Shown piece by piece: positions 12,534 through 31,410 of a DNA stretch of 52,337 nt. How positions within the stretch are numbered: the first letter of the stretch is position 1; each line of letters opens with the position of its first letter. Origin of the DNA: Bacteroidia bacterium (lineage in GTDB: Bacteria > Bacteroidota > Bacteroidia > UKL13-3). A model generated the notes under the pieces. That model ran no database searches and was not told the DNA's origin. It was given only the letters and a program-made list of their open reading frames with translations. Made by a program: the position numbers and the translations under genes. The stretch spans positions 1 to 52,337 of the forward strand of contig JBILJL010000001.1 of the NCBI GenBank assembly GCA_044377255.1, read 5' to 3'.

Positions 12534-14027
12534 TCAGGCTTCCCTTTCAATTATTATTTCTGAAACAATCTTGCCAGAGCTCAGGCACAAAGGAATGCCG
12601 CCTCCAGGGTGAACACTTCCGCCACAGAAATACAAACCCTTTATTTTACTAGAAAAATTAGCATGTCTTAAAAAAGCCGCATACCTATTGTTACTTGCAT
12701 TTCCATACAATGACCCTCCAAAACTAGATGTTTTACTTTCTATTAACCTAGGATCTAAAACCGATTCGCTTTCAATTAATGGTTCAATTGGCTGCTTCAA
12801 TAATCTACTCAACTTAGCCAAAATATTAACTCTTGCCCTTGCAATATAATCGTCCCAATCTTGGCCGGTATTGGCTGGAGCATTTATCATTACAAACCAA
12901 TTTTCGCAATTTAAAGGAGCATCTGAGGACAAATATTTGCTACTAATATTTACATAAACAGTAGGATCGTTATAAAGCTCTTTTCTTTTAAAAATATAAT
13001 TGAACTCTTCTTCATAATTTGAACTGAAGAAAATGTTGTGCAAATCCATTTCACTAAATTCTTTTTTAATTCCCCAATAAAAAATTATTGCCGAAGACGA
13101 TTTCTCTTGGGCCAAGAGCTTTTCTGGGGCGGTTTGATCCGAAAGTAAATTGCGATAAGTAGGATGAACATCCATATTGGAAACAACCAAATCAGCTAAT
13201 ATAATTTGTTCACCTACAACAATTCCTTTTACGCTTCCACTATCCACTTTAATGGCATTAACCTTTTTATTAAAATGAAAATTTACACCTAATTTTTCAG
13301 CTGCAGCCATCAAAGAATTAGTAATTTGAATCATTCCATGCTTAGGAAAAAAGGTACCAATACCGTGTTCCAAATGCGGAATCATATTCAAAATTGCTGG
13401 AGCTTCAAATGGATTAGAGCCATTGTAGGTGGCAAATCGATTAAAAAATTGAACCAAATGCGGGTTTTTTAAATCGCGCTCATTTTGTTGATTCATGGTC
13501 TCAAACAAATTCAATGAAGGTAAAGCCAATATTCCTTTAAGGGCTTTTCTACTAAAATAAGTCTTCTTTAAGTGTAGACTTGATTCTAAAAAAAGTGGAG
13601 CCGTTGATTCATATTTTTTTTGGGCTTTGCTTAGATAATCGAATACCATTTGAGGGTCGATTCCAAGTTTCATTTGTAGCTCCTCTGCAAATAACTTCTG
13701 ATCGTGATAGGCAACCAACCTAATTCCATCTTCGTAAAAATAATGGCAACCTTTTTCTAATTGTATTACAGGAAAATCCTGCGCTGGCACTTCGGCTAAC
13801 GACAATAACTCTTGAACCAAGTGAGGCAAGGTAAACAGTGAAGGGCCTGCATCGAAACGATAATTACCTTGAGCAAAATCACTTAGTTTACCTCCAGGAT
13901 ATTCATTGGATTCAAAAACATTAACTTCAAAACCAGCATGCGCTAAACGAATGGCTGTAGCTAAACCTCCCACTCCAGCTCCTATAATGATTGCGTTCTT
14001 TTTCAAATTCTCTAGTATTTTGCACAA
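12534..14027 (-). CDS. CrtI-family FAD-dependent carotenoid desaturase (CrtD-like 3,4-desaturase, or possibly a CrtO-type ketolase)
   Basis: 497 aa with IIGAGVGGLATAIRLAHAGFEVNVFE...GGK...FDAGPS and a C-terminal GGSVHPGGGIP. It is distinct from the bona fide crtI at 16677. It has a non-ATG (TTG) start. Confidence 0.75.
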   Translation of the reverse strand: MCKILENLKKNAIIIGAGVGGLATAIRLAHAGFEVNVFESNEYPGGKLSDFAQGNYRFDAGPSLFTLPHLVQELLSLAEVPAQDFPVIQLEKGCHYFYEDGIRLVAYHDQKLFAEELQMKLGIDPQMVFDYLSKAQKKYESTAPLFLESSLHLKKTYFSRKALKGILALPSLNLFETMNQQNERDLKNPHLVQFFNRFATYNGSNPFEAPAILNMIPHLEHGIGTFFPKHGMIQITNSLMAAAEKLGVNFHFNKKVNAIKVDSGSVKGIVVGEQIILADLVVSNMDVHPTYRNLLSDQTAPEKLLAQEKSSSAIIFYWGIKKEFSEMDLHNIFFSSNYEEEFNYIFKRKELYNDPTVYVNISSKYLSSDAPLNCENWFVMINAPANTGQDWDDYIARARVNILAKLSRLLKQPIEPLIESESVLDPRLIESKTSSFGGSLYGNASNNRYAAFLRHANFSSKIKGLYFCGGSVHPGGGIPLCLSSGKIVSEIIIEREA

Positions 14028-14214
14028 GTTATCATTTAGTGACTTTAAATGTAATACTTTTGCTTTGTTTAAATTTGCCTTAATACCTTTCTTTAAAGCA
14101 AATATAGGCTCAACATATAATTAAATATCATCAATTGTTACCTGGTCAAAAAAAACAAATCTCAATATTGTTTTGTTATTTATAACTTCAATTATTAAAT
14201 TTAAATTACTAAAA

Positions 14215-16650
14215 ATGTTACGAAACTTTTTTTTGATTCTAACTCTTCTCCTTTTTTCTTTTAGTAAAGCCTTTGCACAAAACACCTGCGAAATCATTGG
14301 ATTGGTTCAGGATAAAAATTCTCAAGAGGCTTTAATTGGTGCAACCGTATTTCTTGAAGGAACAACAATTGGTGCTAGCACAAATACAGAGGGCAGGTTT
14401 ATTATCAAAAACATTCCCCCAAAATCCTATAATATCAAATTTCAATATGTTGGTTATGTGAGCAAAACCATTTTCAATGTTGTTATAAACACAGGTAATA
14501 TACAATCTTTTAATGTTGATTTGGAGCCAGAATCCAAAAGTTTAAACGAGGTGGTGGTTCAAGGACGCACCTTTGGTAAAAACACAGAAACACCCTTGTC
14601 CATTCAAAGCCTTACAGCAGAAGAAATAAAAAGTAATCCTGGGGGTAATTTCGATATCTCCAAAGTAATTCAAGCATTACCTGGTGTAGGCGGTAATACG
14701 GGAGGAGCTAGCTTTAGAAACGACATTGTTATTAGAGGTGGTGGGCCAAATGAAAATGTTTTTTATATTGATGGAATTGAAATTCCTGTGATCAATCACT
14801 TCTCCACTCAAGGAAGTTCTGGTGGGCCACAAGGAATGTTAAATGTAAGTTTTATTCAAGATGTAACGCTTGCCTCAAGCAGCTTTAACACAAAGGTTGA
14901 TAACGCGTTGTCATCGGTATTTACTTTCAAACAAAAAGATGGAAATACACAAAAACTACAAGGCAACTTTAGGTTAAGTGCTTCAGAGGTTGCTCTAACT
15001 CTGGATGGACCATTAAGTAAAAATACTACCTTTTTAGCCTCAGCAAGAAAGAGCTATTTACAATTTTTATTTGCGGCAATAGATTTGCCAATCCGACCAA
15101 ATTTTTGGGATTTTCAGTATAAAACAACCACTAAAATTAATGATAAAACTACTCTTACAACATTGGGCGTAGGAGCAATTGATGTGTTTAGTTTTTCTGT
15201 TCCAAAAGAATCTACCCCAGAAAAAGAATATGCCATCAGAAGTAGTCCAAATGTTAATCAGTGGAATTATACTATTGGTGCAGTTGTTAAACGTAGGCTT
15301 CGCAATGGCTATGTTAATTATTCTACCAGCAGAAACATGTTCAATAATAACCTAGATAGGTGGGAAGACGGGCGTGAAAACGACGAAAAATACCGAGCAC
15401 TCAAGATTAGGTCTCAAGAAATTGAAAACAAATTTAGGGTTGATGTAAATCGCTATTCTGGAAAATGGAAATACACCTATGGAGGAATGTTTCAATATGT
15501 TAAATACAATAACCAAACTTACAATAAAATAAACAATGGCATTTATGATACTGCTGGAGTTCAAATTGCACCGCCTTTGGTTATCAACTTTAATACTGCC
15601 ATTGAGTTTTTTAAAGGTGGGTTGTTTGGCGATGTTTCTAGAAGGATGTTAAACGATAGGTTGAATATCAACTTTGGGTTAAGAACTGATTTGAACTCAT
15701 TTACCAACGAAGGCTTGAACCCATTCAAAACTATATCTCCTAGAATTTCGGGAAGCTACGCTTTAACAGAAAAATTGTCGCTAAATGCAACAGTTGGACG
15801 CTACTTTAAAACTCCTATTTATACTGTTTTAGGCTTTAAAGATAACGCAGGAAACTTCGTAAATAAAGACAACAAATATATTTCATGTAATCATTTTGTA
15901 ACTGGCATAGAATACCTGCCAACTGCTAGCTCACGAATTACCTTTGAAACTTTTTACAAGCAATATAACAACTACCCCATATCTGCTTACAATGGAATTT
16001 CATTGGCAAATATGGGTGCTGATTTCAATATTTTGGGTAACGAGAAAACCACCTCTACCGGCAAAGGTAGGGCTTATGGTTTTGAAGTTTTCTTTCAACA
16101 AAAACTGAGTAAAAACATTTTTGCTACTATATCTTATACTTGGTTTGTAAGTGAATTTAGCGGCTCTGACAATATTCTTAAACCCTCTGCTTGGGATAAC
16201 AGAAATCTTATTTCAACCATATTGGGTTACAAGTTTAAAAAAGGTTGGGAAATTGGTGTCAAATATCGTTTTGCAGGTGGATCTCCTTATACGCCATTTG
16301 ACTTAGAGGCCTCTCAAGCCAATTATCTGAGCACGGGAAATGGGGTATTTGATTACAAGCAACTTAATACAATAAGAGTTGGACCATTCCAACAATTAGA
16401 TTTGCGCATTGATAAGAAAATGAATTTTAAGCACACTACTTTAGACCTTTTTATTGATATTCAAAATGCACTGCTTATTGCTTCAGAATCTTTTCCTTCA
16501 TACACCTTTCAAAGAACAGCAGATAATACCAACTGGCAATCAACTGATGGCAAACCTGTGCAAACTAATGGTACAAATGCTATACCTGTAATTTTAAATA
16601 ATGCTAGCAATACCGTTATTCCTTCTTTTGGTTTAATAATAGAATTCTAA
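14215..16650 (+). CDS. TonB-dependent outer-membrane receptor with N-terminal carboxypeptidase-regulatory-like domain
   Basis: ATG 14215 gives the signal peptide MLRNFFLILTLLLFSFSKAFA/QN. It is followed by GLVQDKNSQEALIGATVFLEG (CarbopepD_reg-like), a plug region (NPGGNFDISKVIQALPGV) and a barrel ending in F. Confidence 0.85.
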   Translation: MLRNFFLILTLLLFSFSKAFAQNTCEIIGLVQDKNSQEALIGATVFLEGTTIGASTNTEGRFIIKNIPPKSYNIKFQYVGYVSKTIFNVVINTGNIQSFNVDLEPESKSLNEVVVQGRTFGKNTETPLSIQSLTAEEIKSNPGGNFDISKVIQALPGVGGNTGGASFRNDIVIRGGGPNENVFYIDGIEIPVINHFSTQGSSGGPQGMLNVSFIQDVTLASSSFNTKVDNALSSVFTFKQKDGNTQKLQGNFRLSASEVALTLDGPLSKNTTFLASARKSYLQFLFAAIDLPIRPNFWDFQYKTTTKINDKTTLTTLGVGAIDVFSFSVPKESTPEKEYAIRSSPNVNQWNYTIGAVVKRRLRNGYVNYSTSRNMFNNNLDRWEDGRENDEKYRALKIRSQEIENKFRVDVNRYSGKWKYTYGGMFQYVKYNNQTYNKINNGIYDTAGVQIAPPLVINFNTAIEFFKGGLFGDVSRRMLNDRLNINFGLRTDLNSFTNEGLNPFKTISPRISGSYALTEKLSLNATVGRYFKTPIYTVLGFKDNAGNFVNKDNKYISCNHFVTGIEYLPTASSRITFETFYKQYNNYPISAYNGISLANMGADFNILGNEKTTSTGKGRAYGFEVFFQQKLSKNIFATISYTWFVSEFSGSDNILKPSAWDNRNLISTILGYKFKKGWEIGVKYRFAGGSPYTPFDLEASQANYLSTGNGVFDYKQLNTIRVGPFQQLDLRIDKKMNFKHTTLDLFIDIQNALLIASESFPSYTFQRTADNTNWQSTDGKPVQTNGTNAIPVILNNASNTVIPSFGLIIEF

Positions 16651-16676
16651 GCAATTAACAATAGATTTGGATACAA

Positions 16677-18161
16677 ATGGGAAGAAAGAAAGCAATAGTA
16701 ATTGGGTCTGGTGTGGCAGGATTATCTGCAGCAAGTTACCTTGCCAAAGAAGGTTATTCCGTGACCATTCTAGAGAAAAATGAGCAAACTGGTGGAAGGG
16801 CAAGAAAATTTAGTGCCCATGGATTTACCTTCGACATGGGCCCAAGTTGGTATTGGATGCCCGATGTGTTTGAAAAATATTACCAGGATTTTGGCTATAC
16901 CACCTCAGATTTTTACGAATTACTTCGCTTAAGTCCAAGTTACCGAGTTATTTCCAAAAGTGGGGAAGCAGTTGATATTCCTGCAAACATGGATGAACTT
17001 GAAGCTTTGTTTGAAAAATTTGAACCCGGCTCAGCAACCAGATTACGTGGGTTTTTAAGTGAGGCCAAATACAAATATGAGGTAGGTATAAACGACCTTG
17101 TTTATAAACCTAGTTTAAGCATCCTTGAATTTGCTGATGTTCGTTTGCTTAAAGGCCTCTTAAAAATGGATGTTTTGAGCAATATGCGCAAACATATTGC
17201 TAGTATTGTAAGTAACCCCTTTTTACAAGAACTTCTTGAGTTTCCGGTACTGTTTTTGGGCGCATTGCCACAAAACACCCCTGCTTTATATAGCTTGATG
17301 AATTACGCAGACATGCAGCTTGGTACTTGGTACCCGCAGGGTGGGATGCATCTTTTTATACAGGCTTTTCAAACAATTGCAGAAAAGTTAGGTGTTACTG
17401 TTTTGTTGAACCAAGAGGTTGTTTCGGTTGATACGAAACAAGGGATGATAAGCGCTGTTAATACTTCAGATCAAACTTACTTGGCTGATGTGGTTATCAA
17501 TGCAAGTGATTACCACCACATGGATCAGGTAATATTAAGTCCCGAAAATCGCAGCTATTCAGCATCCTATTGGGCAAAAAGAAAGATGGCTCCATCTTGT
17601 TTATTGTATTATGTTGGGGTTAACAAAAAAATAACAAACCTATTACACCATAACCTATTTTTTGATACCGACTTCAACTTACATTCTAAAGAAATTTACA
17701 CCACCCCAAGCTGGCCAACAAAACCACTATTTTATGCTTCAGCTCCCAGCAAAACAGATCCTTCTGTTGCGCCAGATGGTTGTGAAAACTTGTTTCTTTT
17801 AATTCCTATTGCACCCGGATTAGAAGGCGACAATGAGGAGTTACGAGACAAATATTTTGAACTGATTATTAAAAGGTTGGAGCAGCAAACTGGAGAATCT
17901 ATTTTGCCTTTTGTAATCTATAAACGCAGTTATAGTGTGAAGGATTTTAAGGAAGATTACCATGCCTTTAAAGGAAATGCTTATGGGCTGGCTAATACAT
18001 TGGATCAAACCGCTATATTAAAGCCTAGCTTAAAAAGCAAAAAGCTTAAAAATTTATTTTATGCAGGTCAATTAACGGTACCCGGCCCTGGTGTTCCACC
18101 CAGCATAATTAGTGGAAAGGTTGCAGCTATGCAAGTGGTCAAAGAATATGGTAACGGTTAA
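16677..18161 (+). CDS. crtI: Phytoene desaturase (lycopene-forming)
   Basis: 494 aa with KAIVIGSGVAGLSAASYLAKEGYSVTILEKNEQTGGRA...FDMGPSWYWMPDVFE and a C-terminal GQLTVPGPGVP. Confidence 0.9.
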   Translation: MGRKKAIVIGSGVAGLSAASYLAKEGYSVTILEKNEQTGGRARKFSAHGFTFDMGPSWYWMPDVFEKYYQDFGYTTSDFYELLRLSPSYRVISKSGEAVDIPANMDELEALFEKFEPGSATRLRGFLSEAKYKYEVGINDLVYKPSLSILEFADVRLLKGLLKMDVLSNMRKHIASIVSNPFLQELLEFPVLFLGALPQNTPALYSLMNYADMQLGTWYPQGGMHLFIQAFQTIAEKLGVTVLLNQEVVSVDTKQGMISAVNTSDQTYLADVVINASDYHHMDQVILSPENRSYSASYWAKRKMAPSCLLYYVGVNKKITNLLHHNLFFDTDFNLHSKEIYTTPSWPTKPLFYASAPSKTDPSVAPDGCENLFLLIPIAPGLEGDNEELRDKYFELIIKRLEQQTGESILPFVIYKRSYSVKDFKEDYHAFKGNAYGLANTLDQTAILKPSLKSKKLKNLFYAGQLTVPGPGVPPSIISGKVAAMQVVKEYGNG

Positions 18162-18165
18162 TTCA

Positions 18166-18197
18166 TTTGTTTCTAAAAATAAATTTTTCTATTTTTG
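18166..18197 (+). promoter_or_regulatory. Candidate Bacteroidota sigma-A promoter (TTTG-N20-TATTTTTG) in the crtI-crtB gap
   Basis: TTTG at 18166-18169 and TATTTTTG (TAnnTTTG) at 18190-18197, 77 nt upstream of the crtB ATG. Confidence 0.3.
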
Positions 18198-18273
18198 ATT
18201 TAATTAAAAACAAATTAGCGCTTTCTCACATTATACCTATACAATTAATATTTTTAGCTATCTTTACCTTTCA

Positions 18274-19110
18274 ATGAAATCAATCTTCGACAATATCTCA
18301 ATTAAAAGCAGCAGGTTGGTTACTAAAACTTATAGTACATCCTTTTCATTGGGAATTAGTTTCTTGTCGAAACGATTTCAAGATCCAATTTACGCAGTGT
18401 ATGGCTTTGTTAGGTTGGCCGATGAAATTGTTGATTCTTTTCATGGTTATCCAAAAAGACAATTGTTGGAAGAATTCAAGGAGGAAACGTATAAATCTAT
18501 CAATAGGGGAATTAGCACTAATCCAATTCTAAATAGCTTTCAACAAGTTGTGCATGAATACAACATTGACCATTCTAGTATTGAAACTTTTTTGAAAAGC
18601 ATGGAAATGGATTTAATGCTAAACACATACACCCAAGATGGTTATGAAAACTATATTTTAGGGTCTGCCGAAGTGGTTGGCTTAATGTGTTTAAGGGTTT
18701 TTGTTGAGGGAGATAACCAGCAATATGAAAAGCTTAAACCCTATGCAATGAAATTAGGTTCAGCTTTTCAAAAAATAAATTTTTTACGCGATTTCAGAGC
18801 TGATAAAGAAGATTTAGGAAGGATTTACTTTCCACAAATGAAGGAAAATGATTTCACAGAGGAAGTGAAAAAAGAAATCGAACTAGACATTCAAAGAGAT
18901 TTTGAATCTGGCTATCAAGGTATTAAACTCCTGCCAAAAGACACTCGATTTGGTGTTTATGTAGCTTATATTTATTACTCTAGGTTATTAAATAAAATAA
19001 CCCAGTTGCCGGCCCAAAAAATAATAGAAGAGAGAATTCGAATAAGTAATAAGCAAAAATATGCTTTGTTTTTTGGCTCGTATTTGAGGCATAGCCTTAA
19101 TATGTTATAG
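18274..19110 (+). CDS. crtB: Phytoene synthase
   Basis: 278 aa with YSTSFSLGISFL...YAVYGFVRLADEIVD...GSAEVVGLMC...FQKINFLRDFRADKEDLGRIYFP, matching the squalene/phytoene synthase signatures. Confidence 0.9.
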   Translation: MKSIFDNISIKSSRLVTKTYSTSFSLGISFLSKRFQDPIYAVYGFVRLADEIVDSFHGYPKRQLLEEFKEETYKSINRGISTNPILNSFQQVVHEYNIDHSSIETFLKSMEMDLMLNTYTQDGYENYILGSAEVVGLMCLRVFVEGDNQQYEKLKPYAMKLGSAFQKINFLRDFRADKEDLGRIYFPQMKENDFTEEVKKEIELDIQRDFESGYQGIKLLPKDTRFGVYVAYIYYSRLLNKITQLPAQKIIEERIRISNKQKYALFFGSYLRHSLNML

Positions 19111-19604
19111 TGAATAGCATGCTTTATTTGTTTTCTTGCCTGATCCTATTGACCCCAAAATTTGATAAAGATTTACTTACTATGCGCGCTGAATATTACC
19201 AAGCCATCAATAGCGAGGAAATTGCAATTAAGTTAGACAAAGAATTAGGCGCAATTAGCAATAAAACGTTTTTACAAATGGGCTATTTTGGTGCAAATAA
19301 AATGATACTTGCCAAATTTGCCTTTTGGCCTAATACCAAATATGCTTTGTTTGTTGAGGGTAAAGCAATTTTGGAAGAGGCAATTAAAAACGATCCAAAA
19401 AATATTGAATTGATTTTCTTGCGTTATCCAGTTCAACTAAACGCACCATCCATATTAGATTATAATCAAAATGTTGCAAGCGATAAAAAAACACTCGTTA
19501 ACGAAGTAAAATCAATAAAAGACAAAGATTTGAAATCTCGAATTTTGGTGTTTCTATTAAGCGATGGTAAATTAACGGAAGCGGAAAGGAAAGCTATTCA
19601 ATGA
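19110..19604 (+). CDS. Hypothetical helical protein embedded in the crt operon
   Basis: GTG 19110 overlaps the crtB TAG (or ATG 19119). Its stop overlaps the idi ATG (ATGA at 19601-19604). It has a hydrophobic N-terminus with a possible lipobox (LFSC). I recognise no family. Confidence 0.55.
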   Translation: MNSMLYLFSCLILLTPKFDKDLLTMRAEYYQAINSEEIAIKLDKELGAISNKTFLQMGYFGANKMILAKFAFWPNTKYALFVEGKAILEEAIKNDPKNIELIFLRYPVQLNAPSILDYNQNVASDKKTLVNEVKSIKDKDLKSRILVFLLSDGKLTEAERKAIQ

Positions 19605-20113
19605 GCCCCGAAATGGTAATTCTTGTTGATGAAAACGATAATCAAATTGGGTTCATGGAAAAACAAGAGGCACATGAAAAAGGAGTGCTTCATCGAGCAT
19701 TTTCTATTTTAGTTTTTAATTCAAAAGGAGAACTTCTGTTACAACAAAGAGCTTTAAATAAATATCATTCTGGTGGCTTATGGACCAATACCTGCTGCTC
19801 TCACCCTCGCCAAGGCGAAACAACGGAAGAAGCGGCCCACCGCAGATTAAAAGAAGAAATGGGCTTCGATTGCCCCCTCAAACTTCACCAGTCTTTCATC
19901 TATAATGCGCCGTTTGAAAATGGACTAACCGAACATGAATTAGACTATATTTATATTGGACAATACGATGAAAACCCACAATTTAATCCAATAGAAGTGC
20001 ATACTTTTAAATGGATTTCTATGGAAGAATTATACACTCAATTAACATTGGAACCTAAGCAATTTACTGTTTGGTTTAAGATGATAATGGATCATTATTT
20101 GACTGATAAGTAG
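19601..20113 (+). CDS. idi: Isopentenyl-diphosphate delta-isomerase, type 1 (Nudix)
   Basis: 170 aa with HRAFSILVFNSKGELLLQQRALNKYHSGGLWTNTCCSHP...EEAAHRRLKEEMG...TEHELDYIY. Confidence 0.9.
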   Translation: MSPEMVILVDENDNQIGFMEKQEAHEKGVLHRAFSILVFNSKGELLLQQRALNKYHSGGLWTNTCCSHPRQGETTEEAAHRRLKEEMGFDCPLKLHQSFIYNAPFENGLTEHELDYIYIGQYDENPQFNPIEVHTFKWISMEELYTQLTLEPKQFTVWFKMIMDHYLTDK

Positions 20114-27283: not shown

Positions 27284-28000
27284 TTAGTCTTCGCTTCTAC
27301 TTAAAGTGTAGATAACTAAACCAAATCCAATTTTATTAATTGCGTCTGCAATATTATATACAATATCCATTGCATGTGAAGCAGCAGCTGGATCAGATAC
27401 CAATTGAATTCCAAACAAACCACCTGGTGTGCCTAAAATGTAACCCAATGGATAAATTGCCCATCCTACTAAAACAAACCAACCCAATACCCTAGTTGCT
27501 TTTGCAACTTGAACACCAGCTGTTTGAGCCAAATTAGCCACTTCTCCAAACCAAACTAGGTAAACAATGTAGAAGTAAGCAGCACCAGAAATAACACCCC
27601 ACATAACGCTGTTTCCTCTGTCTATTGTTTCACCAAAATAGCCAGTTACTAGCATTACCAAAGATGCAAAAATCAATTTCCAAAGCAAGCCAATTTTAGC
27701 ACCTGCTTTTTTAGTGATAAGATAAAACTCAACACACATCAACGGCACAGTAAGAATCCAATCAACATATCTAAAGAATGTTGGTGAATCTCCAGTTTCT
27801 AAATTGTAACCTCTCATGTAGTAGTAATGTACTGCTGCAATAAAGGTGATTAAACCAGAAACTAAAACAGAAGTTCTCCATTTTTGAGATGTTGTACTTA
27901 ACTCAAAAAAGAAAAACACAGAAGCGGCCATCATGGCCATTGTTCCGATAAAAAACGTGAACGCCACGTAATTATCACTTGCAATTTTTAAATGTTCCAT
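27284..28000 (-). CDS. Microbial rhodopsin, proteorhodopsin-type light-driven proton pump (DTE motif)
   Basis: 238 aa with 7 hydrophobic helices. Helix C is RYVDWILTVPLMCVEFY (D80, T84, E91). AAVHYYYMR carries the PR-type His. The Schiff-base Lys is in NIADAINKIGFGLVIY (K223). Confidence 0.92.
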   Translation of the reverse strand: MEHLKIASDNYVAFTFFIGTMAMMAASVFFFFELSTTSQKWRTSVLVSGLITFIAAVHYYYMRGYNLETGDSPTFFRYVDWILTVPLMCVEFYLITKKAGAKIGLLWKLIFASLVMLVTGYFGETIDRGNSVMWGVISGAAYFYIVYLVWFGEVANLAQTAGVQVAKATRVLGWFVLVGWAIYPLGYILGTPGGLFGIQLVSDPAAASHAMDIVYNIADAINKIGFGLVIYTLSRSED

Positions 28001-28108
28001 AAATATATTTATGTTTTTTGCCTACTCTTAAGGATTTTCGGATTCTCCCCGTTTTTTTACTTGGTATCTGGATTCCAATACACCAAAAGAACATTATATC
28101 TATAAATA

Positions 28109-28151
28109 AGTTTTGTCATATTTTATATTTTTATAAAATTATGACAAAACT
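28109..28151. promoter_or_regulatory. Perfect 12-bp inverted repeat AGTTTTGTCATA-N19-TATGACAAAACT between crtY-blh and the rhodopsin gene
   Basis: Read directly from the sequence. It starts 12 nt after the crtY-blh stop and ends 109 nt upstream of the rhodopsin ATG. It could be a terminator hairpin or an operator. Confidence 0.4.
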
Positions 28152-28162
28152 ATGAGTCTGTA

Positions 28163-30208
28163 CTATTTTTTAGAATCGTAAAAAAGCTGATTTCCAATCA
28201 ATTGATAAAACTTATTCATAGCTATAATGTGCGGAAAACTGATGCAAGAAATGAAGATGAAAAAAGTTTTCATCCATTCGTCTAGGCTAGATTTCAAAGT
28301 AAAACTGTTGAAATAATAAAGTAAGCACCCAAAAAGTATAAAGGCCCCAAGGTTAAATGGCAAAGCTTTTGCAAAAATTTGCTTGTTATTTAAGTGTAAA
28401 CCCTTTTTTATGTGTGTCCAACCATTTAAACTGTGTTGCCCAATAAAATATATTCCAAATGAGGTAATGAGCGGTAATTGCACACAAATTAATAAAATTG
28501 TTGCGCTTATAAACATGGCTAATCTGCGCTCCCAATATGCCCATAAAATTGATATAATGGCTAGGACCATGGTTATAGCAATACTTATCTTGTTTGTAAG
28601 CGGTATGGTATTTACTTTCATGTTACCTAGAATTTGATTTGTTTCTGGTAAATGACCCAATAATAAAATGCCTAAAAGAAATATTCCCCATATCCAATTA
28701 TTTAGGGTTCTCTTTTTTTTAAACTGCCATTCATGCATATCGGCCTCCCCAAAATGCCAAGCAGAGTATATTAGAAAAAAGAGCAATGCCAAGTTGGGAA
28801 CAAATAGCCAAAGCAATAAAAACGCAAATGCCTTGCTCAAATAGCTTATAACAAATGCAAGCCTTATGTTATGTTTTTGTTTCTCCTTAACTAAGAGGTG
28901 ATCAACTGCGCCGTGGGGTATTCCTAGAAAAAACAAGCCTGTTGTAAAAATGCCTATTTGTATGGGTTCAAATATTGATGGCGTATTTATATGTATTGCC
29001 CAAAGTACTAAGGTAAATAGGAATAAAAATATTGGAGCAGCCAAATATTGAAAACGCACTTTTGCGTCTAAATGCCATGCTATTAAAAAAGGTTTAATGG
29101 GTAGGCTAATCAATATTCTTATATCTTGCGATAGGGATGTTTTTTCATCTAAAAACTGCAAAACATTTATCAACTTATTCTTGTCAAATAAGGCTTTAAA
29201 GATGCCACTGCCTGCTTCTGGTTGGTTATTTAATATGATTAACAACAACCTATCATAAAATCGAAACCTTTTTGGACTCTCTTGTTTTATTGGTGGTGCC
29301 GTCATTTGAATACCTTCTGCCAGTTTTTCCGCATGTTTAAACATGTTCTTAAAAGCATAACCTGTGCTTGGTTTAATGGCCCCACTTCTTCCTCCAATTG
29401 CTATCAAACCTGGCAGCGTATTTTCCGAAATTCTTAATGTGCTCATGGGTATGCAGCCAGTTTCAATGTGTGATACGGTGCAGGTGCCAAATCGTTTTGT
29501 TATGTATTCATTTAATATAGGTTCAGCGCTAATAGGGTCAAGGATTTCTTTGCCGAATCTTGTTAATTCCACTAAGATTTTGCCAGAATCGTAAGGTAAT
29601 ACATAAATGAATTGGGTATAACCTTGTTGCGCTATCCTAAAATCCATTAAATCGATGGCCTGTTTAGTTTCTTCTTTATTTTCTGGTTGTACCACATACC
29701 CTATAAACGACTGTTTTAGGTGAACCTCGTTTTTTTTAGCTGTTAAATAGCTTGGTGGTCGGCTATCGAAAACTTGGGCAGAATGCCAAACTCCTTCCTC
29801 TGTTATAACATTAAGCCCTTCATTTATTGCCTCAATACTTATTACATTAGTTTGTATTCTTTGGATGTGATAATTTTCCAAGATTCTTCGCATTTCATGG
29901 TATACATCAATACTAGCTATTTGCATGTATTCCAAAGGTTTAATGGGTTCTAGTGCTCTTCCATTTACGCACATTTCTTCCCATTTCTGACTTATTAAAT
30001 GCTTACAATTTATACTTATTTCATCTGTAGGTTTTGCCCAAAAACAGTATGTTTTGTCGTTGTGAATCTTGGAATCTGGATCAATCACCAAAATTTTTTT
30101 ATTTTTTAACAAGCCTCTTCGCTCCATGCTCATTAACAAAAGCGTTGCGGAAGCTCCTGCACCTGCAAACAAATAATCAAATTTTGGGTATGTTGTGCTT
30201 TCCAACAT
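28163..30208 (-). CDS. crtY-blh: Fusion protein: lycopene beta-cyclase (CrtY, about aa 1-385) plus Brp/Blh-family beta-carotene 15,15'-dioxygenase (about aa 395-681)
   Basis: The N-terminus has the FAD fold DYLFAGAGASATLLL...VIDPD...YCFW and later IAIGGRSGAIKPSTGYAF...FLDEKTS. The C-terminus is polytopic with the four His motifs GIPHGAVDHLL, SAWHFGEADM, GQHSLNGW and FPHIIAM. It is a single uninterrupted 681-codon frame. Confidence 0.8.
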   Translation of the reverse strand: MLESTTYPKFDYLFAGAGASATLLLMSMERRGLLKNKKILVIDPDSKIHNDKTYCFWAKPTDEISINCKHLISQKWEEMCVNGRALEPIKPLEYMQIASIDVYHEMRRILENYHIQRIQTNVISIEAINEGLNVITEEGVWHSAQVFDSRPPSYLTAKKNEVHLKQSFIGYVVQPENKEETKQAIDLMDFRIAQQGYTQFIYVLPYDSGKILVELTRFGKEILDPISAEPILNEYITKRFGTCTVSHIETGCIPMSTLRISENTLPGLIAIGGRSGAIKPSTGYAFKNMFKHAEKLAEGIQMTAPPIKQESPKRFRFYDRLLLIILNNQPEAGSGIFKALFDKNKLINVLQFLDEKTSLSQDIRILISLPIKPFLIAWHLDAKVRFQYLAAPIFLFLFTLVLWAIHINTPSIFEPIQIGIFTTGLFFLGIPHGAVDHLLVKEKQKHNIRLAFVISYLSKAFAFLLLWLFVPNLALLFFLIYSAWHFGEADMHEWQFKKKRTLNNWIWGIFLLGILLLGHLPETNQILGNMKVNTIPLTNKISIAITMVLAIISILWAYWERRLAMFISATILLICVQLPLITSFGIYFIGQHSLNGWTHIKKGLHLNNKQIFAKALPFNLGAFILFGCLLYYFNSFTLKSSLDEWMKTFFIFISCISFPHIIAMNKFYQLIGNQLFYDSKK

Positions 30209-30362: not shown

Positions 30363-31151
30363 TTAAGTGTTGACAGTTGTTCTTTCTGTCAATTGTCGGT
30401 AAACACCGTTCCACAATTCAATTCTTTGTTTTAAGGAATGTATAACTGATTCTTCTGCTTCTTTCCAATATTGCTCGTTGTCATTACAAAGATTGGCCGT
30501 CATTTGTAAAGCAAGGTTACTGTGGTGGTCACCATCTACTTCGATGTGCCTTTCTATATAATATTTAAAGACAGAGATTTCATTAGGAAAATTCTTGTGT
30601 ATTTCATTTATGATGGAGATAAACATACCTGGGATTAAATCTTCTCGGCCAAAAGTAAAAATGGCTGATTGCAAATACGCTTTATCACTCTCAATAACTT
30701 TAAAAGTAAAATCTACAAATTCTTGTGCTTCCTTTGGAGTGCCTGAGGATAAATAAGCGGAGTTAAAGTCGCTGGTGTTTTTCAATACACTTGTAAAAAC
30801 TTCAATTTTAGTTGTATCAGCTCCACATTGTTTCATGGCATCTAAGTATAATTCAAAATGACTTTTCCTAACACCATTTAAGTCTACGTCTGATTCTTCA
30901 CCTACAACTATTTCATTAATAAGATACCTTGTGTCTGCAGTTCCTCTGGGAAACCAAGGAACAGATGTACAAGTCAAGTTACGCTGTAACGTTTTTAATA
31001 AAGACATAAAGTCCCAAACTGCGTACACGTGGAATTGCATAAATACTTTTAAGTCGTTTATGTCTTTAATTGCTAAATAAACTTTATGATTAATAATCTC
31101 TTGTCTTAAGGGTTCAATTGCTTTTTTAATTTTTTCAATTTGAATACTCAT
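30363..31151 (-). CDS. DUF3050 protein (heme-oxygenase-like helical fold)
   Basis: From ATG 31151: MSIQIEKIKKAIEPLRQEIINHKVY...FMQFHVYAVWDFMSLLKTLQ...YIERHIEVDGDHHSNLA. The track's upstream extension to 31265 lacks coding character. Confidence 0.7.
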   Translation of the reverse strand: MSIQIEKIKKAIEPLRQEIINHKVYLAIKDINDLKVFMQFHVYAVWDFMSLLKTLQRNLTCTSVPWFPRGTADTRYLINEIVVGEESDVDLNGVRKSHFELYLDAMKQCGADTTKIEVFTSVLKNTSDFNSAYLSSGTPKEAQEFVDFTFKVIESDKAYLQSAIFTFGREDLIPGMFISIINEIHKNFPNEISVFKYYIERHIEVDGDHHSNLALQMTANLCNDNEQYWKEAEESVIHSLKQRIELWNGVYRQLTERTTVNT

Positions 31152-31410
31152 TTTTGCTTTTTGATTTTTAGGTAAACATTTAAAATTAACTAATGTTTGA
31201 ATTTCTATACCAATTTGTGAATTCCAATTCCAAAATCTTATGCTGCAATTAATTCGATTAAACACTTTGTCAATTAATAAATAGCTCGTAGATGGAATTT
31301 AACTAATATTTATTGCGCTTTTGCGAAGGATTTAATCATTTGTTTAATTTACTGGAACCAATTTTAGAACTTTTTTTGAATTATCACTTGAACACGTAAA
31401 TTTGATTTAT

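Follow-up and report, generated by a model that had tools for sequence, protein, structure and literature searches.

The DNA examined here is a 52,337-nucleotide (nt) stretch, hereafter the window, from Bacteroidia bacterium (Bacteroidota; UKL13-3; assembly GCA_044377255.1, contig JBILJL010000001.1, positions 1 to 52,337), and it contains a gene in which a CrtY-type lycopene cyclase and a Brp/Blh-type beta-carotene dioxygenase are joined in one polypeptide. A first interpretation of the locus, made from its letters alone and referred to below as the sequence-only reading, had proposed that a single 681-codon frame encodes both enzymes. The open reading frame (ORF) listing of the window and the Pfam domains of the product bear this out: the ORF at 28163..30208 runs from an ATG start through 681 codons to a TAG stop without interruption, with the correction that the gene lies on the minus strand. 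The gene is divided as follows, in amino acids (aa) of the product, with the membrane-spanning part described in terms of predicted transmembrane (TM) helices and the cyclase assigned to the flavin adenine dinucleotide (FAD)-dependent type.

28163..30208, minus strand: crtY-blh fusion gene, 681 codons plus TAG (ORF, both Pfam domains, identical protein on independent assemblies)
29078..30208, minus strand: CrtY-like FAD-type lycopene cyclase domain, aa 1-377 (PF05834 match; ends of stand-alone CrtY relatives)
29039..29077, minus strand: seam joining cyclase and Blh, aa 378-390 (basic; constant length, variable sequence)
28166..29038, minus strand: Brp/Blh beta-carotene 15,15'-dioxygenase domain, aa 391-681, with about 10 predicted TM helices (TIGR03753, PF15461)

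The sequence-only reading had suggested searching with profiles of both families, and in these searches both domains score well above the Pfam cut-offs. Lycopene_cycl (PF05834) matches aa 13-374 with 126.1 bits (cut-off 23.4) and covers profile positions 3-375 of 380, while BCD (PF15461) matches aa 425-667 with 129.9 bits (cut-off 28). The Blh half also passes the NCBIfam blh model TIGR03753 (147.4 bits against a cut-off of 95.25), whereas the cyclase half falls short of both the CrtY equivalog model TIGR01789 (46.2 against 215.2) and the lycopene-cyclase subfamily model TIGR01790 (82.6 against 209.5). These shortfalls point to a divergent, Bacteroidota-type cyclase, which is thus not filed as a CrtY equivalog. 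All of the motifs that had been quoted for the two enzymes are present in the 681-aa protein: DYLFAGAGAS (aa 11-20), GGRSGAIKPSTGYAF (aa 272-286) and FLDEKTS (aa 352-358) in the cyclase half, and IPHGAVDH (aa 430-437), AWHFGE (aa 483-488), GQHSLNGW (aa 590-597) and FPHII (aa 658-662) in the Blh half.

When 50 homologues are aligned, the two halves show similar constraint, with 56% identity in CrtY versus 51% in Blh and invariant columns making up 24% versus 20%. Invariant positions of the cyclase half include F14, G16, G18, A19 and S20 near the N-terminus and F200, Y202, P205, E214 and T216 further on; the latter match FxYxxP...ExT, which we take to be the cyclase signature that carries the catalytic glutamate in CrtY/LCY enzymes. 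In the Blh half, H432, H485, H519, H592 and H660 are invariant and H437 and H599 nearly so, and we assume the invariant histidines to be the proposed iron ligands of the family. An AlphaFold2 model of the fusion (predicted local distance difference test score 82.5, predicted template modelling score 0.74) has helices over aa 387-680. Its N-terminal domain is matched by Foldseek to 3oz2, 3nix and FAD-dependent geranylgeranyl reductases, with E values of about 1e-10, and to monooxygenases of the p-hydroxybenzoate hydroxylase (PHBH) fold. The invariant residues and these structural matches together show a dinucleotide-binding motif at the N-terminus and a Rossmann/PHBH-type flavoprotein fold. No Brp/Blh protein occurs among the 50 Foldseek matches listed for the model, and a PDB sequence search with the fusion gave no match at E<=1.

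The junction itself is intact in the window, with the codons across nt 28990..29109 containing neither a stop nor a frameshift. A sequencing or assembly error that merged the frames of two neighbouring genes has nevertheless to be weighed, since related genomes do contain adjacent, overlapping crtY and blh genes and a one-base error would mimic a fusion. The sequence-only reading had proposed looking for such a stop or frameshift in independent assemblies, and none is found there: exactly the same 681-aa protein is encoded on independently assembled contigs of different samples and assemblers, namely an ENA/JGI sample and two run assemblies from Logan. Moreover, the best 120 matches among 5.8 billion proteins, drawn from JGI, ENA, NCBI and Logan, are all 663-689 aa long with both Pfam domains. 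We also surveyed the 80 best loci, taken from one genome per species and all encoding the fusion; a single uninterrupted alignment spans both domains in 72/80 of these genomes, and the remaining loci are cut at contig ends, end prematurely near the C-terminus or use a different genetic code. With the identical contigs, the intact frames and the uniform database matches taken together, a merged-frame artefact is ruled out, and we regard its probability as vanishingly small.

The same architecture is very widespread and is common in uncultured aquatic Bacteroidota. An exhaustive HMMER scan of 1.84 billion representatives of clusters at 50% identity gave 733 matches at E<=1e-30, and the best 150 of these clusters comprise 93 full-length fusions (29-55% identity), 24 fragments, 29 stand-alone CrtY and 4 stand-alone Blh proteins. 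Carriers among the 80 surveyed genomes belong to Chitinophagaceae/Ferruginibacter, Saprospiraceae, Lewinellaceae, Crocinitomicaceae, Cryomorphaceae/Schleiferiaceae and marine Flavobacteriales (UBA952, MED-G20). They are mostly freshwater organisms, many with record names that indicate lakes, reservoirs or rivers, and the window protein is 95% identical to that of isolate ZE-03apr19-19 (locus L001). The species names attached to these records call for caution, as several records of metagenome-assembled genomes (MAGs; L001, L005, L007, L010, L052 and others) bear names of cultured species that are implausible for lake MAGs, such as Chitinophaga pinensis, Sphingobacterium thalpophilum, Streptomyces griseus and Chryseobacterium gleum.

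Where the two enzymes meet can be read from their stand-alone relatives. In the alignment to the query, stand-alone CrtY relatives reach as far as aa 375-385, and those of Blh set in at aa 388-391; judged by these ends, the true seam is at aa ~378-390 (nt 29039..29077), with no linker added. The sequence-only reading had put the junction at aa ~385-400 and called it hydrophobic and free of stops. The absence of a stop or frameshift holds, but the hydrophobic stretch at aa ~388-408 is the N-terminal TM helix of Blh: the helix at aa 391-408 falls inside the part shared with stand-alone Blh relatives and is therefore the first TM helix of Blh itself. An additional linker helix, acquired to fix the topology of the fusion, can be ruled out for the same reason, as stand-alone Blh relatives already have this helix. 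The seam is variable in sequence (mean identity of 21%) with 0% gaps among the 50 homologues, and the overlapping segment at aa 375-389 is basic, with a mean of 2.7 Lys and Arg residues.

Close relatives with unfused genes suggest how the fusion came about. In locus L081, which has the closest consistently stand-alone CrtY (394 aa), the next gene encodes a 296-aa Blh, and the two genes overlap by 4 bp at the CrtY stop and the Blh ATG (…AAAAAATGAACAAATGG…); the seam of the fused proteins matches the position of this ATGA stop/start overlap. At locus L093 the overlap between the genes for CrtY (389 aa) and Blh (285 aa) is 1 bp, and a convergent rhodopsin gene lies next to them; other relatives have a proteorhodopsin gene followed by blh alone. 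Since unfused crtY-blh pairs overlap by 1-4 bp, a single small indel separates the fused from the overlapping-gene state, and changes in both directions have probably occurred. The fusion would thus have arisen from adjacent crtY and blh genes with overlapping stop and start codons, with a small indel switching between the two states. Fused and split versions share some clusters at 90% identity (e.g. split P0232 and P0284, on one contig, with fused P0285), and fused and stand-alone forms are interleaved in neighbour-joining trees of each domain, which are midpoint-rooted and were built without bootstrap or outgroup.

These observations also bear on the main alternative to a functionally meaningful fusion, namely that translationally coupled crtY and blh genes merged neutrally by stop loss, with both activities kept and neither channelling nor selection involved. 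The overlaps of 1-4 bp in unfused neighbours, the mixture of split and fused forms in the same 90% clusters and their interleaving in the trees are all consistent with such an origin. However, fused proteins make up 93 clusters at 50% identity, are still seen at 29% identity and come from several Bacteroidota families, and the seam keeps a fixed length without gaps among the 50 homologues, suggesting that it is structurally constrained; in addition, assembly frameshifts may account for some of the split forms. On this evidence, we consider a purely neutral fusion possible but unlikely.

The membrane topology predicted for the Blh half would place both active sites on the same side. Hydropathy segments, the helices of the AlphaFold2 model and the charge of the loops agree on a polytopic membrane domain, and over 11 loops the mean number of Lys and Arg residues strictly alternates between 2.0-2.9 and 0-1.0. 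By the positive-inside rule, such a pattern is expected of 10 TM helices whose N- and C-termini are both cytoplasmic (N-in/C-in), and it would put the cyclase domain in the cytoplasm. With this topology, H432, H485, H592 and H660, which belong to the four His motifs cited by the sequence-only reading, would lie at or near the cytoplasmic face.

Directly downstream of the fusion lies an opsin gene, separated from it by a short spacer.

27284..28000, minus strand: proteorhodopsin-type opsin, 238 aa (PF01036, Bac_rhodopsin, 136.8 bits)
28001..28162, minus strand: 162-bp spacer between fusion and opsin, holding an inverted repeat at 28109..28151

The distance of 162 bp given by the sequence-only reading agrees with the ORF coordinates. 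The opsin has a DTE motif (RYVDWILTVPLMCVEF) and its Schiff-base lysine within AINKIGFG. An opsin adjoins the fusion in 63/80 loci, with the order opsin then fusion in 43, fusion then opsin, as in the window, in 19, and a divergent arrangement in 1, so that an opsin upstream of the fusion is commoner than the downstream order of the window. No opsin is found nearby in at least five loci for which both flanks extend over 5 kb or more.

The adjacent opsin is far more conserved than the fusion it accompanies. Across most loci (L001-L078, several families and orders) the opsin protein is 85-100% identical, with a minority at 59-74%, whereas the neighbouring fusion is only 38-55% identical where the opsin is 85-100% identical. 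Third-codon positions of the opsin gene are only about 40-68% identical, which rules out recent horizontal transfer and instead argues for old divergence under very strong purifying selection, perhaps with codon bias.

The spacer contains an 11-bp perfect inverted repeat, AGTTTTGTCAT N21 ATGACAAAACT (28109..28151), that starts about 12 nt past the fusion stop, on the upstream side of the opsin. The window has a single match to its core pattern, and 100 shuffles gave none. The repeat is kept only in the close relatives L001 and L002 and in no more distant locus. It may form the hairpin of a terminator or attenuator, or serve as an operator, and its first arm overlaps a Bacteroidota-type TAnnTTTG element (TAGTTTTG). 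A sigma-70 promoter and terminator scan gave fewer promoter matches than shuffled sequence, the sigma-70 model being uninformative for Bacteroidota.

Other neighbours of the module vary. Directly upstream of the fusion, a DUF3050 protein (30363-31265) has a weak match to Haem_oxygenas_2, an iron-containing redox enzyme family, and a DUF3050 protein with 71% identity lies directly downstream of the opsin at L005:12976-13755, so that the association with the module recurs. At L077:577-5019, the fusion stands between two opsin copies, 91% and 89% identical to that of the window, and beyond the second of them comes another match to the CrtY-like N-terminal part; the module may have been duplicated in tandem here, unless the arrangement is an assembly repeat. 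An identical fusion protein (P0113) has different neighbours immediately downstream in two loci: in L089 it is followed by glyceraldehyde-3-phosphate dehydrogenase and in L090 by a tyrosine integrase (Phage_integrase), which may reflect a recombination hotspot, or a mobile element, next to the module.

Outside Bacteroidota, one fusion cluster is labelled Pseudomonadota and one locus Gracilibacteria. The locus at L084:7111-10076 (GCA_026390435.1), from a MAG labelled Pseudomonadota, encodes a 691-aa fusion with 31% identity in the order opsin then fusion; unless this bin carries a wrong label, the module is not confined to Bacteroidota. The locus at L080:394-5596 (JANNCQ010000080.1), from a MAG labelled Candidatus Gracilibacteria, has a fusion gene with four in-frame TGA codons that ends in TAG, and ORF lengths at this locus roughly double under genetic code 25. 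Read with this code, it encodes CrtE-, CrtB- and CrtI-like proteins beside the fusion, amounting to a complete gene set from geranylgeranyl diphosphate to retinal in a TGA-recoded genome of the candidate phyla radiation type; on this contig, the fusion is the sole cyclase and the sole cleavage enzyme. The 12 kb of sequence examined around it contains no opsin. Published work found no blh in Saccharibacteria (bioRxiv 10.1101/2022.02.13.480300).

The window also encodes other carotenoid genes at some distance from the fusion.

12534..14027, minus strand: crtD, 1-hydroxycarotenoid 3,4-desaturase (NF042421, 649 bits, cut-off 500)
16677..18161, plus strand: crtI/D (NF058655 CrtID, 720.6 bits, cut-off 640)
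18274..19110, plus strand: crtB (SQS_PSY, 145.7 bits)
19110..19604, plus strand: orf164, no family match, overlapping both neighbours and conserved in L001 and L002
19601..20113, plus strand: idi (NF002995, 169.7 bits, cut-off 127)

This cluster (12534-20113) contains no cyclase, hydratase or hydroxylase gene, and tblastn together with Pfam scans of all large ORFs found no second CrtY, Blh or other recognisable cyclase in the 52-kb window. The presence of crtD points to a separate carotenoid end product. Carotenoid biosynthesis (crt) genes within 10 kb of the fusion are seen only in close relatives of the window and in L080.

A lesser alternative is that the cyclase half is not a standard bicyclase and instead acts as a monocyclase or on another substrate, with retinal made from gamma-carotene-type substrates or a different apocarotenoid formed. 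Its scores below the NCBIfam CrtY and lycopene-cyclase cut-offs would fit this, as would the CrtD and CrtI/D encoded in the window. In addition, the stand-alone crtY of locus L092 (P0250) is clustered with genes for a CrtI-family oxidase (Amino_oxidase) and a Caroten_synth (CruF-type) protein, a combination that we take to be typical of monocyclic carotenoid pathways. Against this stand the strong linkage to a retinal-binding opsin in 63/80 loci and the Blh half, which passes its subfamily cut-off. Furthermore, a single beta-ring would still give retinal, leaving the end product for the opsin the same. Overall, an altered cyclase activity seems to us improbable.

The interpretation that we favour, and consider likely, is that the gene encodes a genuine, conserved bifunctional membrane enzyme, built from a cytoplasmic FAD-type cyclase and a Blh domain of about 10 TM helices and derived from overlapping genes, that makes retinal for the neighbouring proteorhodopsin. 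Lycopene would be supplied by the CrtB and CrtI enzymes encoded 9-11 kb away, and the first domain, facing the cytoplasm, would cyclise membrane lycopene to beta-carotene. The attached Blh domain would then cleave beta-carotene into two molecules of retinal for the proteorhodopsin encoded next door. Likely benefits would be a fixed 1:1 stoichiometry and proximity. As the cyclase and the putative His/Fe site are both predicted to face the cytoplasmic leaflet, beta-carotene could be cleaved before it diffuses into another carotenoid branch.

Several points weigh against this bifunctional enzyme or against parts of it. The failure of the cyclase half to reach either NCBIfam cut-off means that a bicyclic rather than a monocyclic product is not fixed by the profiles. 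In-frame GTG (V385) and TTG (L390) codons by the seam might permit separate translation of Blh, and the interleaving of split and fused forms, even inside 90% clusters, suggests that selection for fusion may not be strong. The carriers are all MAGs (80/80), and we infer both activities from domains and conserved residues. Finally, the window has genes for another carotenoid as well, encoding CrtD and CrtI/D, and if the fusion is the only cyclase of the genome, cyclised product must also escape from it, which argues against tight channelling.

For channelling in particular, our confidence is low. It is conceivable, but we think it doubtful, that the fusion is a dedicated channelling retinal synthase that forms with the opsin a self-contained, two-gene photosystem module, drawing lycopene without a shared pool of free beta-carotene. 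Such a module would have spread through most uncultured planktonic lineages of Bacteroidota and reached a TGA-recoded (Gracilibacteria-type) genome, where it stands beside crtE, crtB and crtI.

Established proteorhodopsin photosystems have separate CrtY and Blh enzymes, encoded in crtEIBY-blh clusters beside the proteorhodopsin gene in marine Proteobacteria, or have proteorhodopsin-blh pairs, as in Flavobacteriia. The window resembles these systems in the two reactions, in the enzyme families (PF05834; PF15461/TIGR03753) and in the linkage to an opsin, and unfused versions of this very pair are found in the close relatives L081 and L093. It differs in that the two enzymes form one polypeptide without a linker and that the pair usually stands with the opsin as a two-gene module, away from crtB and crtI. 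Fungal CrtYB/CarRA, a bifunctional lycopene cyclase and phytoene synthase, is likewise a natural fusion in which lycopene cyclase is joined to a second carotenoid-pathway enzyme, but there the partner, phytoene synthase, catalyses a non-consecutive step and the cyclase is of the CrtYc/d type. The CrtYc/d cyclase found in a protein of Thecamonas trahens is presumably unrelated to the FAD-dependent CrtY of the window.

That protein, a four-domain CrtI-CrtB-CrtYc/d-Blh fusion described together with the thraustochytrid CrtIBY (PMC10016063), is the closest published analogue. As in the window, a cyclase lies directly N-terminal to Blh in one polypeptide, in a host with opsins (PMC10016063). However, it is eukaryotic, its cyclase is a small membrane protein rather than the PF05834 FAD type, and CrtI and CrtB are also fused to it, so that the resemblance is one of analogy, not membership. 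Engineered enzyme fusions for microbial retinoid production (for example PMC10219262, PMC11587636) share the aim of a greater flux to retinal or retinol by joining enzymes; those fusions are artificial, whereas the one here is natural. Full-text searches of the literature turned up no report of a CrtY-Blh fusion in bacteria. Both domain families and the reaction pair, the textbook end of the retinal pathway, are known, and the fusion is not surprising in principle.

As a natural one-polypeptide route from lycopene to retinal, the fusion would be a ready part for retinoid bioproduction and for making functional rhodopsins in heterologous hosts. The unfused, overlapping pairs of its relatives would serve as natural controls for testing whether fusing membrane enzymes channels a hydrophobic intermediate. 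For the organisms themselves, the finding concerns retinal supply, the less-studied half of rhodopsin phototrophy, for which surveys usually score crtY and blh as two markers. Database names of the fusion cover only one half (JGI: "lycopene beta-cyclase"; NCBI: "Brp/Blh family"), and gene-presence tables for abundant freshwater and marine Bacteroidota could consequently miss one of the two steps.

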